From Patescibacteria group bacterium (lineage in GTDB: Bacteria; Patescibacteriota; Patescibacteriia; Patescibacteriales; UBA12465): a stretch of DNA of 64,000 nt. Below the pieces are notes generated by a model. It saw only the letters and a program-made list of their open reading frames with translations, ran no database searches and was not told where the DNA came from. Position 1 is the stretch's first letter, and each line of letters starts with the position of its first letter. This document shows, piece after piece, positions 5,624-40,125 of the stretch. Both the position numbers and the translations under genes were made by a program. Location: positions 284,549-348,548 of the forward strand of contig JBAZNJ010000001.1 of NCBI GenBank assembly GCA_041649315.1. The letters are read 5' to 3'.

Positions 5624-6022
5624 TTAACATATCTTTATATCCCGAACAGCTAATTTCCCATGTTCCGAATATAAATAAAAACTGAATTCTTCTCCGGGGA
5701 AATCATCTCTTCCGTGAACATAAACGCTTTCTCCTGATTTTAAAACCTTAAATAAACTGTCTAAGGCCAAACCCGGTGTTTTCCCGGAAAAATAATCATC
5801 CCGACTCTTATAATGGATTGAACCGCCATAGCAATTCAAAAAACAAGAGCCGTCTTCATTATAAACAACCGAAAAACGGCAAGGATTCTTAAGGAGCCCC
5901 AAAGGCGTTTCCTTTAAAAATTCGTAAATTTCCTTTAATTCTCCGCCGACGTTTTCAATAAAATTCGGCAAAGAATAAAGAGAACAATACGCTTCTAAAA
6001 ATTCTAATTCTGTTTTAATCAT
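5624..6022 (-). CDS. Hypothetical protein
   Basis: 132-aa ORF with protein-like composition and no recognisable motif. Confidence 0.35.
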   Translation of the reverse strand: MIKTELEFLEAYCSLYSLPNFIENVGGELKEIYEFLKETPLGLLKNPCRFSVVYNEDGSCFLNCYGGSIHYKSRDDYFSGKTPGLALDSLFKVLKSGESVYVHGRDDFPGEEFSFYLYSEHGKLAVRDIKIC

Positions 6023-6129: not shown

Positions 6130-7218
6130 TTAAAATATCGGATACAAGAATTTAAAAACCATAATCAAAACCCGGTCAATCCAGCGTCGCTGTTTAGATT
6201 CGGCAACAAAAAATTCCGATTCACTTTTCCATTTTTCAATTAAACGAGCTAGCTCCGCCACTAAATTTCTCTGGCGAAAAAACATTCCAGCTTCAATATT
6301 AAAATTAAAAGAAAGAACGTCCAGATTCTGCGAACCAACCACGCCCTCTTCATTATCAATCAACATTATCTTGGCATGGTTCATAAACGGCGAACGATAA
6401 ACCTTTGCTCCATATTCGGACAAGCGGCAAGCATTAAGATAATTTATCTTGTTAAGCGGTTTAACATCGGTATCTCGCGGAATCAATATTTCAACCCGCA
6501 CGCCGCGGCGGCAAGCATTTTCTAATAAAGCGATAAAACGGCGCGGCGGCAGAAGATAAGGCGTAACAATTATGATTGATTGTTGGGCGGCGGCAATCAC
6601 GCGGCGATAATAAGTATTTAAATAATAAAACTTACCCGTACGGGGAAAATTATCCGTCACCCATGACTTTATTTTCTGAACTAATGGCAAACGGCTATAT
6701 GTTAAAATGTTTTCCTTCCGGCCGCCGGCCATTTCATAAGCATAAGCGAAAGATTTTAAAATTCGCTTGACGATTTTTCCGCTCACTCTAATCTGAAGAT
6801 CGTGCCAATTACGGATCTTCTCTTCAATATTAACCCCGCCGATAAAAGCAATTTTTTTATCAATGATCAAGATTTTTCGATGCGTCCGGCGGAACAGATG
6901 AGAAAAATAATGAAATTCCACACCAACCGTTCGAAGCCGGGTAATAGCCGCGGACGACAAAGCCGAACTCCCCCAAGCGTCGGCAATAATCACAATCTCT
7001 AAACCGGCCCGCGCTTTCTGCTCCAATAACCCTAAAAAATCATGCGTTGTCCGAGTGTTGTCTAAAAAAATATACATCTCCATATACACCGAATTCTGCG
7101 CCGCCGAAATCGCTTTAAACATCCCGTCCCAGGCTTTTTGTGAAGTTGTATAAAATTTATAAATCATTTTTTCGTTTAACTTTATAATGATTAATTCGGC
7201 ATTCCAACCGACTATCAT
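6130..7218 (-). CDS. Phospholipase D family protein with two HKD motifs (cardiolipin synthase-like). The true start may be internal (MIYKF..., about 7167).
   Basis: Two HxK(x4)D motifs: HRKILIIDKKIAFIGGVNI and HAKIMLIDNEEGVVGSQNLD. Confidence 0.7.
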   Translation of the reverse strand: MIVGWNAELIIIKLNEKMIYKFYTTSQKAWDGMFKAISAAQNSVYMEMYIFLDNTRTTHDFLGLLEQKARAGLEIVIIADAWGSSALSSAAITRLRTVGVEFHYFSHLFRRTHRKILIIDKKIAFIGGVNIEEKIRNWHDLQIRVSGKIVKRILKSFAYAYEMAGGRKENILTYSRLPLVQKIKSWVTDNFPRTGKFYYLNTYYRRVIAAAQQSIIIVTPYLLPPRRFIALLENACRRGVRVEILIPRDTDVKPLNKINYLNACRLSEYGAKVYRSPFMNHAKIMLIDNEEGVVGSQNLDVLSFNFNIEAGMFFRQRNLVAELARLIEKWKSESEFFVAESKQRRWIDRVLIMVFKFLYPIF

Positions 7219-11830: not shown

Positions 11831-11972
11831 AGGCCATCTAATCATGTCTAGTGCGAAACCCCGTTCTCATAAATTGAGCGGGGTTTTATAATATAAAACA
11901 GAATTTAACAAATATTGAACACTTTCTTTCGTTTTGTAGTCTTAAAATCTCGAGTTTCCGAAAAAATTGGTG

Positions 11973-12013
11973 AGATTATTGGGGAAATTGAGGAGTGGAC
12001 GGAAATTTTAAGT
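11973..12013 (+). repeat. Partial third copy of the 3' portion of the 137-bp repeat (gagattattggggaaattgaggagtggacggaaattttaag)
   Basis: About 37 of 42 nt identical to 14048..14089 and 18978..19018. Confidence 0.7.
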
Positions 12014-12032
12014 TAAGCAGAAACTTTTTTTA

Positions 12033-12061
12033 TTGACAATCGTCTAATAATCGTCTATAAT
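12033..12061 (+). promoter_or_regulatory. Sigma70-like promoter for the Fic gene
   Basis: TTGACA, a 17-nt spacer, then TATAAT, ending 10 nt before the Fic ATG. Confidence 0.5.
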
Positions 12062-12071
12062 ATGACTATCT

Positions 12072-13100
12072 ATGTTTAAGCCAAAATATACAATTACAAA
12101 TAAATTATTAGCTAATATTAAAAGAATTAGTGAAATTACTACCGAACTAAACAGTCGTAATTTTTCAAATATAGTTTTGCTTAATATGGAAAAACGCGCC
12201 CGCGAAATATCGGCATATTCGTCAACCAGTATTGAGGGCAACCCCCTGCCTTTAACAGACGTAAAAAGAATTTTGAAAAATAAACCGGAGAACGCCAGGG
12301 ATAGCGAAAAAGAAGTTTTAAACTATAATAAAGCGCTAATTGAATTAGACGCTTTACTTAAATCCCGCCGGGAAATATTTAACATTGAATTAATATTACA
12401 AATTCAGCGGGCAATAACTAATGGTCTGATTGAAGATTATCGTTGCGGCCAAATTCGTCAAGAACCGGTTTTCGTAAACAATCCTAAAACGCGTCAAACC
12501 GTCTACCTGCCGCCCGACCATCAAGAAGTTGATAAACTATTAAATGAGCTTTTCTATTATTTGAGCGCCAATAAAGAAATAACCGACCCCTTGATTTTAG
12601 CCGGTCTTTTCCATAAACAATTCGTAATTATTCATCCTTTTATAGACGGTAACGGCCGAACGGCTCGATTAGCCACCAAGGCCTTGTTAGCCAAAATGGG
12701 GCTTAATACTTTTTATCTTTTTAGTTTTGAAAATTATTATAACAAAAATGTTAGTCGTTATTTTCAAGAAGTCGGCGTTTTAGGAAATTATTATGAAATT
12801 AAAGACGACATAGACTTTACTTCCTGGTTAGAGTATTTCACGGATGGTATTATTGATGAGCTCCTACGTGTTATTAAAGAGCTAGTTGAAGAAAATAGTT
12901 CTCCGGCCAAAGAATTAAAAGAGCATCATTTAAAAATAATAAATCACATAAAAAAGAGGGGGTATATTGCCGACAGGGATTATGCTCTATTAACTAAACG
13001 CGCCAAGCCGACGAGAAACTTAGATTTTAGAAAATTAATCGCCGATGGAATAATTGAAAAAGTCGGAAAAGGCAAGGCGACTTATTATAGGTTGAGATAA
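12072..13100 (+). CDS. Fic/Doc family protein (adenylyltransferase-like)
   Basis: Canonical Fic motif HPFIDGNGRTARL and a C-terminal winged-helix-like tail. Confidence 0.85.
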   Translation: MFKPKYTITNKLLANIKRISEITTELNSRNFSNIVLLNMEKRAREISAYSSTSIEGNPLPLTDVKRILKNKPENARDSEKEVLNYNKALIELDALLKSRREIFNIELILQIQRAITNGLIEDYRCGQIRQEPVFVNNPKTRQTVYLPPDHQEVDKLLNELFYYLSANKEITDPLILAGLFHKQFVIIHPFIDGNGRTARLATKALLAKMGLNTFYLFSFENYYNKNVSRYFQEVGVLGNYYEIKDDIDFTSWLEYFTDGIIDELLRVIKELVEENSSPAKELKEHHLKIINHIKKRGYIADRDYALLTKRAKPTRNLDFRKLIADGIIEKVGKGKATYYRLR

Positions 13101-13264
13101 AATGAGGGATTATTGCTGGCAAAAATTAAAGAGTCGCAATCAAGATTAAAAGATTACTATATTAAAAATTTAAAAGATAAAAATCTCTATGCTTAAAAAA
13201 ATTCAATTCAAGCTCGCAAAGGCGATTTTCTAAGCGTAGGCGTGCTTGAAGTCGTTGATTAAAT

Positions 13265-13915
13265 ATGACATTTGTTAAAAATAATCCTTATAAATTTGTG
13301 CTTGTAGGATTTCTTGTATTAGTATTTATTTGTACAAGTGTCTTTTTTATAGCAAAAAACAAAAAGCCAAGAAAAGAGCAGGAAGCGCTTTTATCAAGAG
13401 TTGATTATCGAATATTCGCTTGTGGCGAAGAAATATTATTAAAAATAGATAAAGAAGCTATCAAGTTTAAAAAAAATGGTTTGTTTGCGCGCAGTAAATC
13501 CGGGGAGATCATCGCTGACGGCTTAATTTTAAATGATGAGAATATTTCGCTAAATTCATTTTTTGAATTATTTGGCGGGACTATTGAATACACAGATAAT
13601 CATGAGGCCGAGCTTCGCATGCCAACTGAAACAGGCGTACGTGAATTTCAATCTGGAGATTTATGTAAGGGAAAAGAAGCGGATCTTTATGTAATAAATC
13701 ATCGAGTTGAAACAGGAACAACCCCATGGTCTATTTATTCGAGAATCATATGGAAATATTGGGATTATACTTTAATGAATAATTACGGCAAAGTTCCTCC
13801 TGGTGATTGTCTGATTTTTCTTTTTGATTCCGAGGATGTGTTAGACCGCCCATGGCCAACTTGCCCTTCTCACGATAGGGCGCTTGCTAATGGAGAATTA
13901 ATTTTAGAAAAATAA
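13265..13915 (+). CDS. Hypothetical protein with N-terminal TM anchor
   Basis: 216-aa ORF with an N-terminal hydrophobic helix. Confidence 0.4.
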   Translation: MTFVKNNPYKFVLVGFLVLVFICTSVFFIAKNKKPRKEQEALLSRVDYRIFACGEEILLKIDKEAIKFKKNGLFARSKSGEIIADGLILNDENISLNSFFELFGGTIEYTDNHEAELRMPTETGVREFQSGDLCKGKEADLYVINHRVETGTTPWSIYSRIIWKYWDYTLMNNYGKVPPGDCLIFLFDSEDVLDRPWPTCPSHDRALANGELILEK

Positions 13916-13951
13916 CCACTTTTTGTAAACGTTAACTGATTTAAAAATATA

Positions 13952-14089
13952 TTCGATTCCCCCGGCTAACGCCGTCTAATTAAAAAGCGCCCAGCTAACG
14001 CTGAGCCCTTTTTAATAGCCCTAAAATCTGAGGTTTGACAAAATTACAACGGGATTATTAGGGAAATTGAGAAGTGGGCGAAAATTTTA
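13952..14089 (+). repeat. 137-bp direct repeat copy 1 (left boundary of the methyltransferase/Z1 cassette)
   Basis: Near-identical to 18882..19018 (about 3 mismatches over about 137 bp). It begins with ttcgattcccccggctaacgcc. Confidence 0.9.
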
Positions 14090-14106
14090 AGGCGAAACGA
14101 TCCTCT

Positions 14107-14424
14107 CTAACCTTTCGTCAAAAGTCCTATAATCATTACAGTGGCAAATATTGCCCATATGATACTTATAAGGATTTTATTTTTCTTTTTTTCATCTCCT
14201 CTTTTTTTAGCTGTTGAATCAACCCAATCGTCTAAATAGTGTATCCCGAACATCAATAGAAAAAAGGCTATTATACTAATAAATGGTTTGTCGACCAAGT
14301 AGTTAGCGACATTTGTTGCAAAAACAAGAAAAGAAAACAATATTATAAAAAGAAAAATCAAAATATAGTAAATTAAATAAGTCATATTATTAATTAATTT
14401 TCTCTGCTGTAAGATATTCTGCAC
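14107..14424 (-). CDS. Small membrane protein
   Basis: 105 aa with three hydrophobic helices. Confidence 0.4.
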   Translation of the reverse strand: MQNILQQRKLINNMTYLIYYILIFLFIILFSFLVFATNVANYLVDKPFISIIAFFLLMFGIHYLDDWVDSTAKKRGDEKKKNKILISIIWAIFATVMIIGLLTKG

Positions 14425-14605
14425 GAGCTTCTTCGACTTCCTTTTCCATTATTTTAATTTTTTCAATCTCTTTCGGTGTTAGTGCTTTTTTAGAAGAATC
14501 AAATTTACCGCCGATCCACCCTCCCCCCATGAATTGTTTTCTATATTCTTTCAATCGTTGCTCAAGCTCCATATATTTTTTAAGAGTCTCTTTTTTATCG
14601 TTCAT
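14390..14605 (-). CDS. Small hypothetical protein
   Basis: 71 aa, charged and coiled-coil-like; overlaps the neighbouring ORF by 35 nt. Confidence 0.25.
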   Translation of the reverse strand: MNDKKETLKKYMELEQRLKEYRKQFMGGGWIGGKFDSSKKALTPKEIEKIKIMEKEVEEARAEYLTAEKIN

Positions 14606-14609
14606 AAAC

Positions 14610-14906
14610 TTATTGTTTATCTAGCTTATTTTTGAAATGCCTTTTTTCTGCCCTCATGCTGTAAGCAACGTCTTCAACCGCCACTAATTTACTTCTACTT
14701 AGTACAGTCTTTACCGCCCTTGGGATATCATCAAAGTAATTAAACATTTCATCGCTAGGCTTAACTCCTTTCGTTTGATTAGCCTCTAAATGAACATTGC
14801 CACATGTCCAAAATGGTATCTGTTTATTTTTATCCCCTACGTGATCCGGCAAATCATTCGTAAAAAAACGAATTGTTATGCCGATTGTTTTATTATCTTT
14901 CTTCAT
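14610..14906 (-). CDS. Hypothetical protein, upstream gene of the methyltransferase operon
   Basis: 98-aa ORF directly upstream of and co-oriented with the methyltransferase gene. Confidence 0.35.
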   Translation of the reverse strand: MKKDNKTIGITIRFFTNDLPDHVGDKNKQIPFWTCGNVHLEANQTKGVKPSDEMFNYFDDIPRAVKTVLSRSKLVAVEDVAYSMRAEKRHFKNKLDKQ

Positions 14907-14946
14907 AAGATTACTATATTGCTTAATAAAAATTAATAACTACGCT

Positions 14947-15984
14947 TTATTTTGCATACACATCTAGATGATCATATAACTTTTGTGCTTGCCTCTTAGC
15001 AAAAATCGGGGGAACGGCGTCTCCTATTAATCTTGAAACACTTATTAATCCAGCATAAGCAGGAAAATAGTAATTTATAGGGAAACTCTGAAGCAACGAA
15101 GCCTCTCTCATTGTAATTGCTCTATTCTTTGTTGGGTGCAAGTATCTGCCTTTTGAGGGATTGAAACAACCCCCAGTTAGTGTTGGGGCTACGTCATCCC
15201 ATTTTATCCTGCCGTATACATCTCGAAACCCCTCTGTTTTTATATGGCAAGGTAGCTGCTTTTTGAGAGCCGATCTACTCCCGCCATTTTTAGGTATTTT
15301 AGATATTAATTTTTTAATTCTTGGGGTATTTTTCAAAAATAACTTATGTAATGAATCCTCGGACCCGGCGGGATTCGGCAGATATTCTATCACGGACCTT
15401 ACCGTTTTTAACTTTTTATCAGGGTTAGGGAGTTCTGGCGCGCCGATTCTAGACGCCATAAAAATGAATCTTTTTCTCCGTTGTGGCGCACCGTAATTAG
15501 CAGCATTTAATATTGAACACACCGATTGATATCCAATTTCTTTTAAGTTCTTTTCAAATTTCTTAAATCGTTCGTCCAAAGATAGCCCTGGTACATTTTC
15601 CATAAGAACAGTTTTTGGTCTAATTTGTATGATTAGTCTCAAAAATTCAAATACCAAATCGTTTCTTGGGTCATCAGTACTTAATCTGTTTAAATTTTTT
15701 ATACGCGAAAACCCCTGACAAGGAGGACAACCGGCAAGCAAATCTAATTCGCCTCGTTTCACGCCAGCTGCCTTTAATAGACTTCGTCCGCTAACTTTCC
15801 GTATATCAGATTCAATTAAATTTGTTTTTGTGTGATTTTTTCTGTAGGTTAATGCTGCCAGGGGGTCAATTTCTACGGCAGCTTTAACTATAAAGCCTGC
15901 TTTTTTAAGGCCAAGAGACAAGCCGCCGCAACCAGAAAATAAATCCATTGCTTTGTATTTTTTTGTTTTCTTCTTACTACTCAT
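14947..15984 (-). CDS. dcm: DNA (cytosine-5)-methyltransferase
   Basis: Motif I DLFSGCGGLSLG, motif IV PPCQGFS (catalytic Cys) and ENV motif LMENVPGL. Confidence 0.9.
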   Translation of the reverse strand: MSSKKKTKKYKAMDLFSGCGGLSLGLKKAGFIVKAAVEIDPLAALTYRKNHTKTNLIESDIRKVSGRSLLKAAGVKRGELDLLAGCPPCQGFSRIKNLNRLSTDDPRNDLVFEFLRLIIQIRPKTVLMENVPGLSLDERFKKFEKNLKEIGYQSVCSILNAANYGAPQRRKRFIFMASRIGAPELPNPDKKLKTVRSVIEYLPNPAGSEDSLHKLFLKNTPRIKKLISKIPKNGGSRSALKKQLPCHIKTEGFRDVYGRIKWDDVAPTLTGGCFNPSKGRYLHPTKNRAITMREASLLQSFPINYYFPAYAGLISVSRLIGDAVPPIFAKRQAQKLYDHLDVYAK

Positions 15985-15989
15985 AAATA

Positions 15990-17987
15990 TTATCTTTCAA
16001 AACTAAAGGCTAATACATAGTTTCCCTCTGGAAATCTCAACGCTGGCCACCACACTTCAAGACCTTTGCTGCTTTTTTTAAGTTTATAAATATATAAAGT
16101 CGGTGCGTCTTTTGGGGCCAAATCGTCCTCTCCTCCAGAGAGGAAGTTTTGCGTTTCTCTTCTTGACTCGTTTAAATCTCGTCCCTTTTTAACCACAATG
16201 TAAGCTTTGTTTCCATAAAGAGATTTAATTTGATCTAATGCGGCGATTATTGTTTTGTGATTCCATAACTCGGCTCCGTATTCCGGATCATGCTCGCATT
16301 TCTGTATTATCTCTTGAAGTAATTCTATATTCACTTGCGAGCATGGCTGATTGTTATCAAATTGAGATAACATCTTATCGAGCCATACAGTGTTATCGGC
16401 CATTTCGTCAGTTCTTAATGGGTACGATGGGTTACAGTAACCACCAGCTACATAAAGACCAATCGAGTTAGGGTCGAGCACATTCGATCTAGTTGCGTGC
16501 AGAGGAGATGAAATAAAAATACCTTCAAACTTTCCTTCAGGGTATTTTTCTACTAAATCCCTAAGAGCGCTTTCCATTTGATGGATTAGACGAAAATGTT
16601 CGGACAATTTTTCAGGTAAAAATAATCTCGTTACTCCTAAATCATTTTGCCTGTACCCATACATTCTCGCATGCTGTAAAACGGTATCGGCATTTGGTTT
16701 TTTGGGATTTCGTCCATAATAGCTAACAAGTAAATTTTTGATTGTTACTCCTCGGCCTAATTTATTGCCCCCAACAAATATATTATAAACGGAATCGAGT
16801 TTTATTTCCTCATTGGAAGCAGCATTAATTAATTTTATACTTGCGCCGCGCAAATAAAATTTTATTTTATCAATAATTTTTTCAAATTCCGGCATGCCTT
16901 GTTGCGTCTGTTGTAAATCAACATAAGCCTCCTTGAACTGGGGCATTAACCTATCAACCTCAGCAAGCGGATAATTCTGAAACACGTTCATCGTTTCTTC
17001 CTTAAATTTATCTATCAAATTTACAATATACTGATGATCAATTTTCGTATGACTGACATGGCACAAAAAAGCATAGCCCTCTGCTGGGTTCTGTATTATT
17101 TTAAAAGTGGCCCCAATAAGAAATGTGCATAGGGCTTTTTTTAATCCCGTGGGGATTGTTCCACTCGGCGTTGGCTGATAGCTAGCATGAAGCAAATCTA
17201 CTTCTTCTAAGTCAACAGGTTTTAACAATTTGGAGCCAACCTCAAAAAACACATCGCCTCCAACATATCCTGGGCCGGGAGCGCTTAGAATAGTAAAGGA
17301 TGGCCTGTATCTGTGATCCGGCCTCTGTAAGAATAATGCTTGGGGAGTTGCGGTTACCTGTAAATAAGTATTAACAGGGAAAAAATCTCTAAACTGGGTT
17401 ATTATCTCATTGGTGCTACTGATTTGCTCACCACCTTTGCTGGTGTACGTGTTTAAACTAGCTTGATCGGCTTCATCATCAATAATGAGCGTTGACAACC
17501 CTTTCGCCCCGGCCTTTTTAAAGGCGTCTAACAAGCTACGTAATTTTGGTACACCCTTGGAACACACTATAGCAAAAGGAGTTGTGCGTATTTGTCTTTG
17601 GAATCTAGCCGGGTCATTCCAATCATCTTTTCCCATAACTGTTAATCCACGCAAAACTTTTCTTACTCTCTCTAGAGTTTGTTCATATAAAGGGTCATAA
17701 TTTGATGTTAATATTAATAAAAATTGAAAGCCATTGTCTACCGCCATTGCGGCAGCTACCGTAATAATACTTGTTTTACCGCTTTGAATAAGACCATATA
17801 ACAACCCATCGCTAGGATATTCTGGTGGCCCAGCAATTGGATCAACTGATTTTTCAATAAGTTTAGCCGCCTTTTCAGTTATCGCCACTATTGACTCAGG
17901 ATATTTTATTTCGTTGGCGAGTACGCTAAGAACTTCAGTCGTGTGTTGACCATCATGAATTAAAACTTTTTGGTTTTGTTCACTCAT
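15990..17987 (-). CDS. Z1 domain-like P-loop NTPase, probable restriction/defence partner of the methyltransferase
   Basis: Walker A-like GLIQSGKTSIITVAAAM and Walker B-like LIIDDEAD. The 665-aa protein sits immediately upstream of and co-oriented with the C5 methyltransferase, as Z1-domain proteins typically do. Confidence 0.6.
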   Translation of the reverse strand: MSEQNQKVLIHDGQHTTEVLSVLANEIKYPESIVAITEKAAKLIEKSVDPIAGPPEYPSDGLLYGLIQSGKTSIITVAAAMAVDNGFQFLLILTSNYDPLYEQTLERVRKVLRGLTVMGKDDWNDPARFQRQIRTTPFAIVCSKGVPKLRSLLDAFKKAGAKGLSTLIIDDEADQASLNTYTSKGGEQISSTNEIITQFRDFFPVNTYLQVTATPQALFLQRPDHRYRPSFTILSAPGPGYVGGDVFFEVGSKLLKPVDLEEVDLLHASYQPTPSGTIPTGLKKALCTFLIGATFKIIQNPAEGYAFLCHVSHTKIDHQYIVNLIDKFKEETMNVFQNYPLAEVDRLMPQFKEAYVDLQQTQQGMPEFEKIIDKIKFYLRGASIKLINAASNEEIKLDSVYNIFVGGNKLGRGVTIKNLLVSYYGRNPKKPNADTVLQHARMYGYRQNDLGVTRLFLPEKLSEHFRLIHQMESALRDLVEKYPEGKFEGIFISSPLHATRSNVLDPNSIGLYVAGGYCNPSYPLRTDEMADNTVWLDKMLSQFDNNQPCSQVNIELLQEIIQKCEHDPEYGAELWNHKTIIAALDQIKSLYGNKAYIVVKKGRDLNESRRETQNFLSGGEDDLAPKDAPTLYIYKLKKSSKGLEVWWPALRFPEGNYVLAFSFER

Positions 17988-17993
17988 ATAATT

Positions 17994-18470
17994 TTAATTA
18001 ATTACTATTTCCGGCCAATCCTGCAATGGTACCTTGTGGCTCAATTTTCCATTCGGACCCGCGACGGCATATTGCTCATTAAAATTTCTTTTAGCCGACA
18101 GCCACATGACAGCACCGTCCAAAAGAGTAGACGCCTCCGCCCAGTCTATAGCGCATACGCCATCCCCGCCGCACACAAGTGCAATAACACCCTTTACCCA
18201 TAGCTTCTCTGATTCAAGAAGAAAATTTACTTCTTCACTGCTAATAATGAAACGCCACGGGCTTTTAACTTTTGTCGAATATTTAATAAGAACGGCCGAT
18301 TTATCGTTGATAAGGTAGCCTATTCCAAACCGCTTAATATTAGAACATTTCTGAGAATTTAAGGCTCTGATGAGGGCTGAGCCATAGTAAAATTCTTGTT
18401 TGTCTATCATATATTGATGATATTTATATTTTAGCACTTTTTTCCAAAGACGGAAATTGCGAATAATCAA
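17994..18470 (-). CDS. Hypothetical protein, first gene of the methyltransferase/Z1 operon
   Basis: 158-aa ORF, 7 nt upstream of the Z1 gene. Confidence 0.35.
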   Translation of the reverse strand: MIIRNFRLWKKVLKYKYHQYMIDKQEFYYGSALIRALNSQKCSNIKRFGIGYLINDKSAVLIKYSTKVKSPWRFIISSEEVNFLLESEKLWVKGVIALVCGGDGVCAIDWAEASTLLDGAVMWLSAKRNFNEQYAVAGPNGKLSHKVPLQDWPEIVIN

Positions 18471-18721
18471 ATAATTTTAGTCCATTGATTCGCCTTCCAT
18501 TTTTTGCTATAATGCTCTCATAGACTTATTAATAAACAATAATAAGGCAGGAAGATAAAACCTAGCTACGGCTAGTCAGATTACGTCCATGAATTTAAAC
18601 ACGCAGTCTTCAATATAATAACGAGCAAAGTCTAAATCTTTGCCAACTCAACTTAAAACACGAGCAATATATCCGGATATATGACTTGTGTTTTTTGTTT
18701 GGCCGAGTGGCCGTCTTATCG

Positions 18722-18881
18722 GGATTACAGTCTACCCTAGGGGAATCATCGCCCTCGCCCGCCGCCGGCAAAGCGGCGGGCTAACTTGTCCTGGGTCAGC
18801 GTTAAGCATCCCCCGGATGCTTAGCGACGCTCTCCTTTTCGCTTCGCCTCCCGGCTCAGCTCAAGACTCGCTTCTGACCTG
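18722..18881 (+). repeat. GC-rich structured unit, copy 3, preceded by a partial copy of the tRNA-Glu 3' end (ccctaggggaatcatcg)
   Basis: Collinear with 19888..20060 (ccctaggggaatcatcgc...cttgtcc...gttcgattccc). Contains perfect hairpins gcccgccgcc/ggcggcgggc and taagcatc/gatgctta. About 60% GC against an AT-rich background. Confidence 0.7.
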
Positions 18882-19018
18882 TTCGATTCCCCCGGCTAAC
18901 GCCGTCTAATTAAAAAGCGCCCAGCTAACGCTGAGCCCTTTTTAATAGCCCTAAAATCTGGGGTTTGACAAAATTACAACGGGATTATTAGGGAAATTGA
19001 GAAGTGGACGGAATTTTC
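18882..19018 (+). repeat. 137-bp direct repeat copy 2 (right boundary of the methyltransferase/Z1 cassette)
   Basis: Near-identical to 13952..14089. Its last ~30 nt encode the C-terminus of the minus-strand NYN gene. Confidence 0.9.
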
Positions 19019-19713
19019 CAATCATCAGGTTTATGAAAGTCACCATTAATATCCACCATATCATCAAAAAATTGAGAATTTGCTAATGCCAATTTTCGAA
19101 TTATCTTTATGTCTTTATTTACGGCATCTTGAAGCTTATGATTGGTTTTTTTATAAGGGTTTAACAATCTTACTTTTAATCCATCACGACTATTTGCTAT
19201 TTTTATCGATTCCGCCAAATCAGAATCATTAGAAACTATTATGGCGACATCAAACTTTTTTTCATAAACATCTACAATTAGATGGGTGGCTAAATTTACA
19301 TTAGAACCTTTTTCTTCGGTTTTTTTGACAACCAGGTAATTTTTGCCAAGTAAAGGGAGTCTGGTTTGCGCTTTGTCGAATTCAACGTTAGCCTCTTGTC
19401 GGCCTGTTTTTTGACATTTTTCAGGCACAAACATTGTGGCCTCGTTTTCCAAAAAAGTTCCTGGTATTATTTCTAAATTAGGAAGAGTGCGCAGAGCTCG
19501 AAAATATGTTAACTGTCTAACCGGTTTATCCAAATCATCCTTGCGAGCCTTAGTGACAGCTGAAAAATATTTTATTTTTTTAATCTCATATTTTGGAAAA
19601 TAAAAACCGGCCAATTTGTTTAAATCTAGCCATTTATAACTAGTTCTCTTCAGGCTGCCATAGAAAAGATTAAAACCATCGACATATATATACGCCGTTA
19701 ATTTTTTTGCCAT
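18988..19713 (-). CDS. NYN domain (LabA-like) protein; start taken at the internal MAKKLTAYIYVDG
   Basis: YVDGFNLFYG N-terminal motif and IVSNDSDL acidic motif, both typical of NYN/LabA nucleases. Confidence 0.7.
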   Translation of the reverse strand: MAKKLTAYIYVDGFNLFYGSLKRTSYKWLDLNKLAGFYFPKYEIKKIKYFSAVTKARKDDLDKPVRQLTYFRALRTLPNLEIIPGTFLENEATMFVPEKCQKTGRQEANVEFDKAQTRLPLLGKNYLVVKKTEEKGSNVNLATHLIVDVYEKKFDVAIIVSNDSDLAESIKIANSRDGLKVRLLNPYKKTNHKLQDAVNKDIKIIRKLALANSQFFDDMVDINGDFHKPDDWKIPSTSQFP

Positions 19714-19887
19714 ATCACGTCTAGATAAAAGCAGAGGTCGCCTTACGGCGACCTCGCGTTCTGCCACCGAAGCGACAGAAGTAGTATATGACTATATTAT
19801 ATAGCAAGCGCTTGCTAATGTAAAGAGCTAAACTTTCGCTAATTCTACAAACAAAAAGAGAACTGGCACAAGCCAGTTCCCCGATAG

Positions 19888-20070
19888 TAGCCCCTAGGGG
19901 AATCATCGCGCTCACTCGCCGCCATAATGCGGCTCGTTCACTTGTCCGGAGTCGGCGTCGAGTCCTGCGCCAGCTCGGACTCGCCGGCGCTCGTTCGCTC
20001 GTTATTTCTTCCGAAATAACTCGCGCCTCGCTTCCGACTTGTTCGATTCCCGGCTCGACAATTACAAAAT
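19888..20070 (+). repeat. GC-rich structured unit A; begins with a 16-mer identical to the tRNA-Glu 3' end (tagcccctaggggaat)
   Basis: Homologous to 18722..18881. Hairpins gccgc/gcggc, gagtcc/ggactc and gttatttc/gaaataac. Followed by hairpin aaataacgcacaaagtgcgttatttt at 20071..20098. Confidence 0.7.
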
Positions 20071-20103
20071 AAAATAACGCACAAAGTGCGTTATTTTATT
20101 TTG

Positions 20104-20270
20104 TAGCCCCTAGGGGAATTCCGCCTCGCGGCGCTTAGCCGCGCCGCTCGTTGCCCGGACGGACCCGATAAACGCTCGCTCGCTCGCGTTTATCGTCGCT
20201 CGATTACTCGAATTCGCTCCGCTCATTCTCGTATCTCGCTCGCCGTCTGTTCGCTTCCCCTAGTTTACCA
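20104..20270 (+). repeat. GC-rich structured unit B; begins with tagcccctaggggaat and has ends that can pair (ctaggggaa / ttcccctag)
   Basis: Second tandem unit with the same layout (16-mer, GC-rich body, terminator-like hairpin) immediately next to tRNA-Glu. Confidence 0.65.
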
Positions 20271-20280
20271 CCCATTAATT

Positions 20281-20310
20281 AAAAAACTCTAACATTCGTT
20301 AGAGTTTTTT
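20281..20310 (-). terminator. Rho-independent terminator of tRNA-Glu
   Basis: aaaaaactctaacattcgttagagtttttt: perfect stem with a U-run in the minus orientation, directly 3' of the tRNA. Confidence 0.7.
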
Positions 20311-20316
20311 AATTAG

Positions 20317-20388
20317 TAGCCCCTAGGGGAATCGAACCCCTGTTATCAGGATGAAAACCTGGTGTCCTAACCACTAGACGAAGGGGCC
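20317..20388 (-). tRNA. tRNA-Glu (anticodon UUC)
   Basis: Reverse complement GGCCCCTTCGTCTAGTGGTTAGGACACCAGGTTTTCATCCTGATAACAGGGGTTCGATTCCCCTAGGGGCTA folds as a cloverleaf (GTCT/GGAC D-stem, GGGGG/CCCCT T-stem, TTCGATT T-loop, anticodon TTC). Confidence 0.9.
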
Positions 20389-21743: not shown

Positions 21744-21817
21744 GGCTCGATGGCGAAGTGGTCTAACGCAGCAGTTTGCAAAACTGCGACTCGTGGGTTC
21801 GACTCCCACTCGAGCCT
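21744..21817 (+). tRNA. tRNA-Cys (anticodon GCA)
   Basis: GGCTCGATGGCGAAGTGGTCTAACGCAGCAGTTTGCAAAACTGCGACTCGTGGGTTCGACTCCCACTCGAGCCT: acceptor GGCTCGA/TCGAGCC, anticodon stem GCAGT/ACTGC, loop TTGCAAA. Confidence 0.9.
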
Positions 21818-21823
21818 CAAAAT

Positions 21824-21853: not shown

Positions 21854-22765
21854 GATGTTTTGAAAGGGGAGTCGAACAGGTCAGGAGCGAGCTAGATATT
21901 CGCTAGCCATATTATCCCCAAACTAATCCCCAAACCTGTGGATAACCTGTGTTTTCTGTGTATAAAACCATAATTTAAGTCCAGGTTAGCGTGGACTTAA
22001 ACTATTAAAAAGACAATTTAATTAAATTATTTATTTAAATATTAGCAAAAAATACTAAAATATTCCATTTTAAGTCCACAATAGTTGACCCTTATTTTTA
22101 AAAGTGCTATAATATACTTAGGTTCATTAACTAGCTCTGGATTCATTACCGACGCTAACGCGGTAAAGAAAAAAGCTTGAGCAAATTAAATTGTGCTAAA
22201 AGAATAAAATTTGATAAAAGTCATAAAGAAATTTTTATTAAAATTTATTAAAAATTAGCAAAAATAATAAAAATTATTTTAAATTTGCTAGGAGCTGGTA
22301 AGAATTATTCTCTAAAGTTAGCAAGAGACTCAAAGTCCTTAATAATAATCAAGAAAAGATTAGAAAAAAAGGACTGAGGCTCATGACGCGGCTATTAATT
22401 AATTTACTTTATTTTATAATAAAGAGCAGCCCGTCATGGGCCTCTTTTGTTATTAAAAACCGATTTAATAGATTTGAGACTTGATTTAATATGTGGTTTA
22501 ATTGACAAAAATGGTTGGTGAAAATACTAAATTTGACGTAATATCAAATCAGAATAAGAAACAATTATAAAACGGATAATAATATAATAAAAAATATTGG
22601 CAAAATCGCTAATCTCGGCTATACTCAAATCATAATCTGCCATATATTCATATAATTCATATCTTCCGGATCGCTAAAATTGCAAATAATCATTATTCAA
22701 CCTATTTTAACGGACGAGCCTGACGAACAAATGCAATAATAAATTTTCCTAATATAAAATAAAAT

Positions 22766-33560: not shown

Positions 33561-33647
33561 GGAGACGTGTCAGAGTGGTTGAATGAGCCGCACTCGAAAT
33601 GCGGTATGCCGGAAACGGCATCGGGGGTTCGAATCCTCCCGTCTCCG
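33561..33647 (+). tRNA. tRNA-Ser (anticodon CGA), class II with long variable arm
   Basis: GGAGACG...GCCGCACTCGAAATGCGG...TATGCCGGAAACGGCATC...GGGGGTTCGAATCCTCCCGTCTCCG. Confidence 0.85.
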
Positions 33648-33826
33648 CAGATTGTCAATAGCCCTACAGCTACATTTTGCAATTTTATTCGTAGTTATTG
33701 ACATAAAATACCAATATGCTATTATTTAAATATATTCAGAATATGGTGATTAATGAAGAAACTCCTTTGTTTTACTAAAACCACCCACCCTGCCTCCGAA
33801 AGGGGGCACGGTGGGTTTTCCATTAT

Positions 33827-34378
33827 ATGGGCAATGATAAAGAAATAAGAGTTGCTATCTATATCGACGGAAGCAACTTGTATCACAAATTAAAAGATTT
33901 AAAAATTGAAAGAACTACCGAGTTTGACTATTTTGGTTTGTGCAATCTTCTAGCTAGAAAAAGGGTTATTGTTTCTTATCGTTATTACGTGGGTGCGGTC
34001 AGAGCTAAAGTTGGGGATTCTTTGAGCCAGTCTAAAAGATATGGGCAACAAAGGCTATTTAATCATTTAGAAAATCAGGGTTTTCGTGTTAAGCAAGGTT
34101 ATCTAATGGAAAACGGCGAGATATTTCACGAAAAGGGTGTTGATGTTAAAATTGCCGTTGATTTGTTGGTTGGCGCTTATGATGATTTGTATGATGTGGC
34201 TATTTTAATTTCTTCAGATACGGATTTAATTCCGGCTATTAAAAAAGTAAGGCATTTAGGCAAAGAATTAGAATACGTGGGATTTTCCCATCTTCCTAGT
34301 TTTGCTCTGCAGAAAAATGCGACATTATCTAGATTATTGTTAAAGGACGATTTGGAAGAATTTATTAAAAAAGACTAA
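33827..34378 (+). CDS. NYN domain (LabA-like) protein
   Basis: IYIDGSNLYH N-terminus and ILISSDTDL acidic motif. Paralogue of 18988..19713. Confidence 0.7.
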   Translation: MGNDKEIRVAIYIDGSNLYHKLKDLKIERTTEFDYFGLCNLLARKRVIVSYRYYVGAVRAKVGDSLSQSKRYGQQRLFNHLENQGFRVKQGYLMENGEIFHEKGVDVKIAVDLLVGAYDDLYDVAILISSDTDLIPAIKKVRHLGKELEYVGFSHLPSFALQKNATLSRLLLKDDLEEFIKKD

Positions 34379-39140: not shown

Positions 39141-39214
39141 GGAGTGGTAGCTCAGTTGGTTAGAGCGTCTGCCTGTCACGCAGAAGGTCGCGGGTTCGAG
39201 CCCCGTCCATTCCG
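39141..39214 (+). tRNA. tRNA-Asp (anticodon GUC)
   Basis: GGAGTGGTAGCTCAGTTGGTTAGAGCGTCTGCCTGTCACGCAGAAGGTCGCGGGTTCGAGCCCCGTCCATTCCG. Confidence 0.85.
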
Positions 39215-39222
39215 CTAACAAA

Positions 39223-39372: not shown

Positions 39373-40125
39373 ATGGAAGAGTACAAAATAATAGCCTTAG
39401 ATGAGACAGGAAAAGCTAGTATGAATCATCAATCAAAGACTTTCATATTGTCAGGGCTTATTTTAAAAGAATCATATCAAAGAGAGTTAGAAAAGAAGAT
39501 TAAAGATTTGAAGAAGAAATATTTTAATAGTAATGACATAGTTTTGCATTGTAGAGACATGATAAGAAAGAAGGGGCCATTTTCTTGTTTTAGAAAAGAT
39601 TCTGATATGGAAAAAGATTTTTGGCGAGATTTAATTGAAATTATAGAAGCAGAAGAATTGTCGCTAGCGTTTGTGGTGACAAATAAAGAAAAGGCTAAGA
39701 AATTAGGGTGGAATAGTACTACAATACTTAGAAGGTCATACAATAAGATATTAGAAGAGTTTGTTAAAAATTATCTGTCTGATAACAAAGGTAAAATATT
39801 GGTAGAATCTGACCCTTCTCAGGATAAGTATTTAATTGAGGCCCATAATAGATTGCAAGGAATGGGACTGCCATCAGAAGGAATTAGTGGTTTTGAGTAT
39901 AGGCAGAGAGTTACTTCAATAAGTTTTGTTAATAAGTTGAATTTTGATTCAGAAATTCAATTAGCAGATACTTTAGCAATAATGGCCAGTTTATTCTATG
40001 ATATAAAAATGGGCAAAAAAAATAATGGAGATATTACCATTATTGAACAGATGATGAATAAAACTTTGCTTGATAAAAAGATTGAAGATCAAGATAGTAA
40101 GAATATTTTTGAGATATTAGTATAA
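39373..40125 (+). CDS. Hypothetical protein, possibly DUF3800-like
   Basis: N-terminal IIALDETGKAS resembles the DUF3800 Y/I-x-DESG start. Very AT-rich codon usage compared with its neighbours. Confidence 0.35.
   Translation: MEEYKIIALDETGKASMNHQSKTFILSGLILKESYQRELEKKIKDLKKKYFNSNDIVLHCRDMIRKKGPFSCFRKDSDMEKDFWRDLIEIIEAEELSLAFVVTNKEKAKKLGWNSTTILRRSYNKILEEFVKNYLSDNKGKILVESDPSQDKYLIEAHNRLQGMGLPSEGISGFEYRQRVTSISFVNKLNFDSEIQLADTLAIMASLFYDIKMGKKNNGDITIIEQMMNKTLLDKKIEDQDSKNIFEILV

Follow-up and report, generated by a model that had tools for sequence, protein, structure and literature searches.

We analyzed a window of 64,000 nucleotides (nt) from a Patescibacteria group bacterium (assembly GCA_041649315.1, contig JBAZNJ010000001.1, positions 284,549 to 348,548 of the forward strand), in which cassettes of toxin and defense genes are separated by copies of one repeat beside a tRNA-Glu gene. 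The conserved part of this repeat, an ~80-nt block, was once the 3' end of a gene for a large serine recombinase (LSR) and has been displaced from it. We suggest, with a probability of about 80%, that the repeats are attachment-site scars of small (~6-8.5 kb) integrative elements of Patescibacteria, whose attP lies within the last ~25 codons of the LSR gene. The phenomenon is of a familiar kind, namely islands that grow beside a tRNA gene as elements integrate one after another, and that retain decayed elements and att scars.

A repeat search of the window revealed that copies B (13952-14087) and C (18882-19017) form a direct repeat of 136 nt with 97% identity, and a comparison base by base showed four mismatches (14031, 14078, 14081, and 14084) and divergence from 14088 and 19018 onward. 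A third copy, A, had been noticed in the original prediction as a match of 41 nt, and it is real and longer than claimed. The 39-nt core family is located at 11974, 14053, and 18983, the copy-A core (11974-12012) being 90% and 85% identical to the other two, and weaker similarity of copy A extends back to 11936, where it starts at GTAGTC and from where it runs to ~12015/12016. The block common to the three copies is ~80 nt long and lies on the plus strand at 11936-12016 (A), 14015-14092 (B), and 18945-19022 (C). Block A is positioned after the terminator of an IMP-cyclohydrolase-like gene. Blocks B and C follow bidirectional terminator hairpins at 13979-14016 and 18909-18946, both found in the repeat search, which are identical to each other and which we read as the B arms for the two blocks. 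The 136-nt repeat is thus made up of the block, the terminator, and the start of a neighboring unit, termed the E unit and described below. When the 27-mer GGGATTATTAGGGAAATTGAGAAGTGG was searched at up to three mismatches, exactly three matches were found in the window (0.00 expected, 100 shuffles), and a sequence occurring only three times is not the common promoter or terminator motif that would have undermined the original prediction. The layout proposed there (repeat, Fic cassette, repeat, methyltransferase/Z1 cassette, repeat, NYN gene, and tRNA-Glu) was borne out in both order and genes, and its two long repeat copies are real.

The alignment of block copies revealed what the block encodes. 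Substitutions are coding-like in one plus-strand frame (VVLKSEISQNFDGIIGEIEKWAEIL and a stop codon), with the peptide consensus VVL(K/R)SE(I/V)(S/C/Y)QNF(D/N)(G/E)IIGEIEKW(A/V)E(I/V)L and a stop kept 1-4 codons after EIL. Leu is encoded by TTA, CTA, or CTG across the copies, Lys changes to Arg via CGC, CGT, AGG, or CGG, and the most divergent copy, at locus L028, still reads VVPREEISQRLGEIIEEIKRWAEIL. Among the six frames, this one has the fewest stops (10, where column shuffles give ~93) and the highest mean BLOSUM score; no elevation of the synonymous fraction was seen. The block lacks a conserved start codon, its first codon being GTA or GCA, and in several copies a stop is found directly 5' of it. 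Internal stops or a frameshift are present in several of the 39 distinct copies, including the pseudogenized LSR tails of copies B and C (in-frame TGA), and copy A comprises the last 26 LSR codons with their stop (VVLKSRVSEKIGEIIGEIEEWTEILS), also without a start codon. All three are read as B-P' junction scars. In the database mini-ORFs (open reading frames) P0006, P0018, and P0022, ...LILQNKRELASASSPIVV is followed by LKSE..IIGEIEKW.EIL, and these mini-ORFs are the LSR C-terminal region joined to the block (P-P' joins). The start codon is missing from the block because the block frame is continuous with the LSR ORF. A recurrent hairpin 5' of some blocks (gagaactagcaagtgctagttctc) likewise corresponds to codons, those of KRELASASS. 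Two other origins were considered and rejected. The block is not an orphan 3' end of a host gene, since a search of 5.8 billion proteins with the block peptide matched only ORFs of 30-62 aa, and readthrough or frameshifting from an upstream gene into the block is excluded by coordinate arithmetic, which gave inconsistent frames.

All loci were scanned for long ORFs entering any GTAG(T/C)C core. At L008/L028, L026, and L027, this revealed reading frames that stay open over 525-540 codons, enter the antisense strand of tRNA-Glu at its 3' end, and terminate there exactly in the frame of the block; at the tRNA gene the recombinase reads ...TPKISLILQNKRELASASSPIVV up to the junction and then PRGIEPLLPG and a stop. 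The encoded proteins of ~507 aa contain the Pfam domains Resolvase, Recombinase, and Zn_ribbon_recom, and show ~30% identity to serine integrases of Bacillus and Virgibacillus phages. Those of L026 and L027 matched PF00239 at 2e-36 and 2e-37, respectively, as well as PF07508 and PF13408, and carry the motifs YYRVSTEDQ and DRLSR. In the loci with an intact LSR, the block is positioned 5.7-8.5 kb upstream in the same orientation, and the interval holds cargo and, directly before the LSR, a gene for a REP_ORF2-G2P rolling-circle initiator (PF23343; L008, L026, and L027). When these Rep proteins were used in tblastn, copies were also found in L006/L037. The cargo of the intact elements includes ABC-3C components (SMEK, CTD10, and DUF2326), a trypsin-like protease, DUF4145, an HNH protein, and an ABC ATPase. 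The order tRNA-Glu, LSR, Rep, cargo, and block is kept in consistent orientation in all three of L008, L026, and L027, which is the signature of Islander islands, and the tRNA-Glu gene of L008 is intact despite its occupied state.

A further locus shows the recombinase with its native end. L052 (Ga0116171_10000002, 1-21578) contains two tandem Rep-LSR elements at a tRNA-Arg(tct) gene (16686-16758), and two REP_ORF2-G2P genes are present in its gene table. The upstream LSR, P0049 (525 aa), is intact with the block-type tail PLREKISKRFNEIIGEIKRWARFL, ending ...PLREKISKRFNEIIGEIKRWARFLDECPF, and the downstream LSR runs into tRNA-Arg. The tail that completes P0049 is the one of the downstream element; this is the predicted P-P' configuration, and it shows the block-type tail to be the native C-terminus. 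Directly upstream of the tandem pair, we also observed a diversity-generating retroelement (Avd and reverse transcriptase) with likely target genes.

The recombinase family is broad. At least 169 LSR homologues were found at E<1e-60, the named ones being from Patescibacteria, and most of the 120 homologues listed end in peptides that read as an antisense tRNA T-arm and acceptor (RGIEPLL, TGIEPV, TGFEPV, RRIEL, AGLEPAS, and similar). Because most of the listed C-termini have this character, the family appears to sit integrated at tRNA genes, and at several different ones. The database entries P0023-P0142 mostly show the same systematic chimeric C-terminus derived from antisense tRNA (..RGIEPLLPG, ..TGIEPVLPH, and ..TGFEPV..), P0080, P0088, and P0102 have tails of the form ..I.(E/D)I(K/R)(K/R)W.., and the recombinase P0026, present in 14 contigs, continues into an E unit (...VVPRGIIALTRRHNAARSLV).

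We then examined the distribution of the block. An exact search of genome assemblies with GATTATTRGGGAAATTGAGRAGTGG gave 11 loci, in Falkowbacteria, Paceibacterota, and other Patescibacteria metagenome-assembled genomes (MAGs) as well as three MAGs labelled Gammaproteobacteria, and an exact search with a 24-mer version gave 34 metagenome contigs. Altogether the block is present in at least 45 contigs. The conserved unit of ~80 nt, (T/A)GTAGTCTTAAAGTCTGAAATTTCTCAAAATTTTGATGGGATTATTGGGGAAATTGAGAAGTGGGCGGAAATTTTG, nearly always follows a hairpin of locus-variable sequence, in every locus it is sharply delimited at GTAG(T/C)C, and the sequence 3' of it is not conserved among the aligned loci. An nhmmer profile search of these loci detected 78 block copies. 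Since 2-4 copies with a common orientation and a spacing of 1-5 kb are present in many loci, repeat-delimited arrays are the rule and not an oddity of this window. The genes adjoining the blocks are heterogeneous and include Fic (three members), MNT/Polbeta nucleotidyltransferases (three members, with an adjacent HEPN gene in two of these loci), Macro, GNAT, ABC ATPases, an insertion sequence transposase, HisRS, and NUDIX; a single common gene beside the blocks was rejected on this ground. The genome- and metagenome-wide search for the core that the original prediction had called for thus returned 11 and 34 loci with varied bordering genes.

The cassette content also varies between relatives, as the original prediction had asked to be checked. 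In Falkowbacteria GWF2_43_32 (L012/L045), the region is syntenic (YchF, tRNA-Cys, TsaD, tRNA-Glu ... h216 ... ArsP, where h216 is a 216-aa protein also encoded in the window), and three blocks in one orientation are present (L012 2908-2983, ~5875-5899, and 6749-6826), with blocks located between ArsP and h216. MNT, HEPN, and a 320-aa gene are found between one block and h216, in place of the Fic gene of the window. After h216, a truncated E relic, a hairpin, and a block follow as at window copy B. In the third GWF2_43_32 block, the conserved TGG (Trp) codon is replaced by TGA, and this copy is therefore decaying.

The anchor of the array is tRNA-Glu together with the E units, which mimic its 3' end, and the layout is not integron-like. 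The tRNA-Glu(UUC) gene (20316-20388, minus strand) is the putative primary attB of the element family, unoccupied in the window and occupied in L008, L026, and L027. Downstream of it on the tRNA strand are three full E units of ~165 nt and 55-62% GC, each following a terminator hairpin. E3 (20103-20265) directly follows the tRNA gene and is unoccupied; it is flanked by terminator hairpins at 20063-20105 and ~20270-20315, the latter within the ~50 nt between E3 and the tRNA. E2 (19887-20058) would be occupied by the NYN element. E1 (18730-18898), a GC-rich unit with multiple hairpins, has a 3' end that copies the tRNA-Glu 3' end and is read as a pseudo-attB, and its 5' end is the left end of repeat copy C. 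A truncated relic, E0 (13952-13976, 25 nt, minus strand as the others), retains the first ~10 nt of E as well as a mini-hairpin, CGGC-GUUA-GCCG, and forms the left end of copy B; the mini-hairpin is kept in the spacers of E1 and of the E0 relic. The same truncation adjoins h216 in GWF2_43_32, and it is therefore old.

The E units have a closing helix CUAGGGGAAU/AUUCCCCUAG and folding z scores of -3.4 to -5.1, and 12 of the 20 predicted pairs show double compensatory changes among 11 copies. Homologues are found in at least 15 other Patescibacteria loci. The E bodies show ~69% mean column identity. E2 and E3 share their last 17 nt with the local tRNA-Glu (GGGGCTAC; GGGACTAC in GWF2_43_32), and the end of E1 is slightly diverged. 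Neither the block nor E had a match in Rfam (E<=1, 10-23 kb of the window). Because P0026 reads into an E unit and a recombinase tail relic abuts E2 (see below), we infer that E units are used as landing sites. In addition, a 42-nt match to the 5' end of the E unit (GGGGAGTCGAACAGGTCAGGAGCGAG..., nhmmer E 0.003) was observed at 21864-21905 on the plus strand, following tRNA-Cys (21744-21818) and a terminator hairpin; it also appeared as an inverted match in the repeat search. Next to it, at 21912-21965, there is a cluster of three DnaA-box-like 9-mers, one of them perfect (TTATCCACA), at the local minimum of the cumulative GC skew (~22000-22200). A replication origin may lie here; across the window as a whole, such 9-mers are no more numerous than expected by chance.

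The genes between the repeats agree with an accumulation of toxin and defense cassettes. The first cassette (12033-13915, plus strand) would be the cargo of the oldest element. It begins with a sigma70-like consensus promoter (12033-12061, 12/12 for TTGACA-17-TATAAT), followed by the Fic/SoFic gene (12072-13100; Pfam Fic 4.9e-19, motif HPFIDGNGRTARL, PADLOC SoFic 2.9e-46) and by h216 (13265-13915), which has a hydrophobic N-terminus. The Fic gene with its own promoter and the hypothetical membrane-anchored protein had both been recognized in the original prediction. Homologues of h216 also adjoin blocks in L012/L045, L003, and L022. A same-strain contig from Logan (L001, SRR8542065, 6955 bp) is identical across the Patatin-to-h216 region and stops inside repeat copy B, which we attribute to an assembly break because of the repeat; it was the only contig obtained by look-up with the IMP-cyclohydrolase, and look-ups with NYN (two start choices) and TsaD gave none.

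The second cassette (cargo 14107-18470, minus strand) contains three small ORFs (14107-14424, 14390-14605, and 14610-14906), a C5 DNA methyltransferase (14947-15984; 2e-88), a Z1 helicase protein (15990-17987; 5.5e-98), and a 158-aa ORF (17994-18470), of which the methyltransferase and the Z1 protein matched components of type II restriction-modification (RM) in PADLOC, a library of known and candidate defense systems. The third holds an NYN-domain gene (18988-19713, minus strand; PADLOC HEC-09, 1.9e-33) as the cargo of an element remnant, and the last 10 codons of this gene (WKIPSTSQFP and a stop, 18988-19022) lie opposite block C, so that a cargo gene ends inside an att scar. All three window cassettes therefore match PADLOC models (SoFic, RM type II methyltransferase with Z1 helicase, and HEC-09/NYN), which together with the junction scars supports the original prediction that such cassettes pile up at this site with a recombination or att-like sequence between them. 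Elsewhere in the window, a second NYN-domain gene (33827-34378) directly follows tRNA-Ser (33561-33648) and a DUF3800 gene (39373-40125) directly follows tRNA-Asp (39141-39215), and these may be further tRNA-linked accessory insertions.

Based on these observations, we propose the following mechanism. The intact element would carry variable, largely defense-like cargo, a rolling-circle Rep, and an LSR of ~520 aa with attP in the 3' end of its gene, and its circular junction is expected to read LSR ...CCGATA-GTAGTC-TTAAAGTCTG... block. Crossover would take place within (A)GTAG(T/C)C, the 6-7 bp that attP has in common with the 3' end of tRNA-Glu and that read GACTAC/GGCTAC on the tRNA. After integration, the LSR body would stay beside the tRNA and end in ...VVPRGIEPLLPG and a stop, both from antisense tRNA, with the tRNA remaining whole, and the native tail (LKSEISQNFDGIIGEIEKWAEIL and a stop, i.e., the block) would move to the far end of the element, behind a chromosomal terminator hairpin. 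The repeat would accordingly be a junction in which the chromosomal terminator and E-unit arm are joined to the P' arm of attP. E units, which end like tRNA-Glu, would serve as additional landing sites, leading to several elements side by side.

In the window, three elements would have landed at E0, E1, and E2, each having lost its Rep and LSR body and kept its cargo and one block: Fic/SoFic and h216 at E0, the methyltransferase, Z1, and small ORFs at E1, and NYN/HEC-09 at E2. On the tRNA strand, the predicted order would run from tRNA-Glu through a terminator, E3, a second terminator, and E2 to the NYN element (P-arm relic, NYN, and block C), then through a terminator and E1 to the second element (158-aa ORF, Z1, methyltransferase, small ORFs, and block B), and finally through a terminator and the E0 relic to h216, Fic, and block A, ending at the terminator of the IMP-cyclohydrolase-like gene. 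A trace of the recombinase is preserved at E2. At 19830-19886 on the plus strand, an LSR 3'-end relic (KLSLILQTKRELAQASSPIVA) was detected by tblastn with 84% identity over 25 aa (E 1e-6). It keeps 19 codons, including the hairpin that encodes KRELAQASS, is fused to the E2 core, and aligns with the P-B' junction of L008; judging from this alignment, it is the putative right-hand (P-B') junction of the NYN element.

Here, we need to consider several points that weigh against this proposal. First, the window has neither an LSR body nor a Rep, tblastn finding no relic besides 19830-19886, and the history of the cassettes is reconstructed. Second, the right junction of the methyltransferase/Z1 island (18471-18733) has no P arm recognizable by tblastn. 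Third, neither a free circular element nor an empty and occupied pair from one population was recovered, and the only intact LSR with a block-type tail, P0049, is in a tandem array and not on a circle. Fourth, nothing but (A)GTAG(T/C)C is common to the four junction types, which fixes neither the crossover dinucleotide nor directionality. Fifth, for tandem arrays to form at a single tRNA, attP would have to recombine with attL or attR, and this is not a normal LSR reaction. Sixth, the block is absent from the viral contigs of IMG/VR, where the 24-mer has no match and five 17-mer matches are due to chance; an attP of a phage was rejected on the same result. Finally, copies B and C are 97% identical over both arms, compared with ~69% for the E bodies. 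This identity is more readily reconciled with homologous recombination in the recent past than with two site-specific events independent of each other, and it suggests that the methyltransferase/Z1 island and E1 arrived recently by homologous recombination through the 136 nt, or that the stretch was homogenized by gene conversion.

The last point leads to an alternative in which the repeats are portable homology only, and RecA-type recombination or segmental duplication acts between copies of block, hairpin, and E without any site-specific recombinase. Besides the B/C identity, it is favored by the lack of a recombinase gene among the Pfam-scanned ORFs (window 0-48 kb) and by the left boundary of the repeat, which is the end of the available homology at the truncated E0. 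As a full account we nevertheless consider it unlikely, since an LSR P-arm relic lies exactly at the E2 junction, the block is sharply bounded in every locus, and the LSR-tRNA and block junctions are seen in intact elements. The two routes are not exclusive, and homology probably accounts for the B/C pair but does not explain how the blocks arose.

It has also to be asked whether the block is a free-standing small gene, either a C/U-rich minus-strand small RNA (sRNA) with its own terminator or a ~27-aa peptide, with the copies as paralogues. The block is strongly conserved across genera with a terminator hairpin always adjacent, its minus strand resembles an sRNA seed in being poor in G and rich in C/U, and some gene callers predict ORFs of 30-62 aa here. 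However, no helix covariation was seen, and the A-to-T variant from GAAATTT to GATATTT has no compensating partner. The unconserved start, the stops directly before the block, and the disrupted frames among its distinct copies do not suit a peptide gene, and the frame is continuous with the LSR ORF in the P-P' joins and in P0049. We therefore regard this explanation as very improbable. In its specific forms, a minus-strand sRNA with a TAAAAT -10 box and a C-rich seed was ruled out by the missing covariation, the coding-type substitutions, and the LSR continuity, and RNA hairpins within the block (GAAAUUU/AAAUUUU and the palindrome UCAAAAUUUUGA) by the uncompensated variants.

An integron-like array, in which an integron integrase inserts cassettes at folded repeats of the attC type, would account for cassettes delimited by repeats, and toxin and defense genes are typical of chromosomal integron cassettes. 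Yet the same Pfam scan gave no tyrosine recombinase or IntI, the aligned copies on reading have neither the R''/L''-L'/R' architecture nor a palindrome, and the block behaves as coding sequence, being a fragment of a serine-recombinase gene. The window cassettes are, moreover, multi-gene, in both orientations, and with their own promoters, and such an array is hardly credible. A dif/Xer site was also rejected, as no dif-like arms are visible in the block and the location is near the probable origin rather than the terminus. Lastly, the block as the tag reading frame of an unusual, possibly two-piece transfer-messenger RNA (tmRNA), with E as its tRNA-like part, would suit an ORF that lacks a start and begins with GTA or GCA and an E unit that ends like a tRNA, but ARAGORN and Rfam found no tmRNA here, the two parts are on opposite strands without T-arm or acceptor pairing, the sequence downstream of the block is not conserved, and LSR continuity already explains the missing start, so that this reading can practically be dismissed.

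Returning to attachment-site scars of LSR elements, we consider what they would mean. The elements may represent an undescribed family of serine integrases with attP in their own 3' coding end, targeting tRNA 3' ends, with a swap of the protein tail and E units as landing pads; for this extended claim we would put the odds slightly below even. If it is true, the swap of the C-terminal helix (..IIGEIEKW.EIL) for an antisense-tRNA peptide could act as a directionality or 'suicide' switch, and the E units, by mimicking the tRNA-Glu 3' end, would be landing pads where defense cargo piles up in arrays. It would then also contradict statements in the literature, in which serine integrases are not known to target tRNA genes and self-splitting integrases are only archaeal. 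The ~80-nt block and the E units are markers for the borders of integrated or decayed elements and for defense islands beside tRNA-Glu in Patescibacteria, and such markers are of use since recognizable mobile elements are mostly wanting in these genomes. For annotation, most database proteins of the LSR family have a C-terminus derived from antisense tRNA, and from this chimeric end the tRNA occupied by each element can be read. For genome engineering, in addition, new serine integrases are of practical interest when their att sites are short and defined. In the literature searched, the coverage of which is incomplete, no description of such elements in Patescibacteria was found.

Comparison with known systems shows which parts are shared. 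It has been known that Islander islands integrate at tRNA 3' ends and leave the tRNA functional, with older elements farther away and more decayed and direct-repeat scars delimiting the cargo, and only tyrosine integrases were known to target tRNA genes according to the same source (PMC4383910). The integration at the tRNA 3' end and the scars are the same here, whereas the integrase is an LSR, the shared core is only 6-7 bp without duplication of a long tRNA fragment, and the scar is mostly recombinase coding sequence. Prochlorococcus tycheposons, as described in a preprint (bioRxiv 10.1101/2020.12.28.424599), occupy tRNA-adjacent hotspots where successive integrations push earlier elements inward. 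They leave integrase and partial tRNA remnants and carry defense or adaptation cargo and replication modules, with tyrosine recombinases in 910 of 937 tycheposons and replication by primases and helicases. Compared with that description, the present elements have a serine recombinase, a rolling-circle Rep, and hosts of a different phylum, and the description consulted makes no mention of an attP inside the recombinase gene or of mimic sites of the E type.

A parallel to the split gene is found in the 'suicidal' integrases of the SSV type, whose site lies inside the integrase gene, so that tRNA integration splits the gene and its parts flank the element; a 2021 review describes self-splitting integrases as tyrosine recombinases of archaea only (PMC8371274). 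Here too attP would lie within the integrase ORF, as indicated by the antisense-tRNA continuity, the tail at the far end, the P-P' joins, and P0049. In contrast to SSV, the domains are those of serine recombinases and the hosts are Patescibacteria MAGs. In SSV the enzyme loses a large part through the split, while the exchange here concerns no more than the final ~25 of ~520 residues, which give way to ~10 antisense-tRNA residues, and the catalytic, recombinase, and zinc-ribbon domains remain intact.

The recombinase has the same Resolvase, Recombinase, and zinc-ribbon composition as large serine integrases of phages (Bxb1, phiC31, TP901-1, and Bacillus phage), whose att sites share only a short core. 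To our knowledge, these target protein-coding genes or intergenic sites and have attP outside the int gene, whereas the target here is a tRNA 3' end, attP is in the gene, and the carrier is a small element encoding a Rep rather than a phage. Finally, the cis-mobilizable elements (CIMEs) as well as the integrative and conjugative elements (ICEs) of Streptococcus thermophilus include recombinase-less cassettes flanked by att sites, which stand beside or replace complete elements; they use a tyrosine integrase and target the 3' end of a protein-coding gene (fda). Recombinase-less cassettes flanked by att sites are found here as well, but with a serine LSR and a tRNA 3' end.

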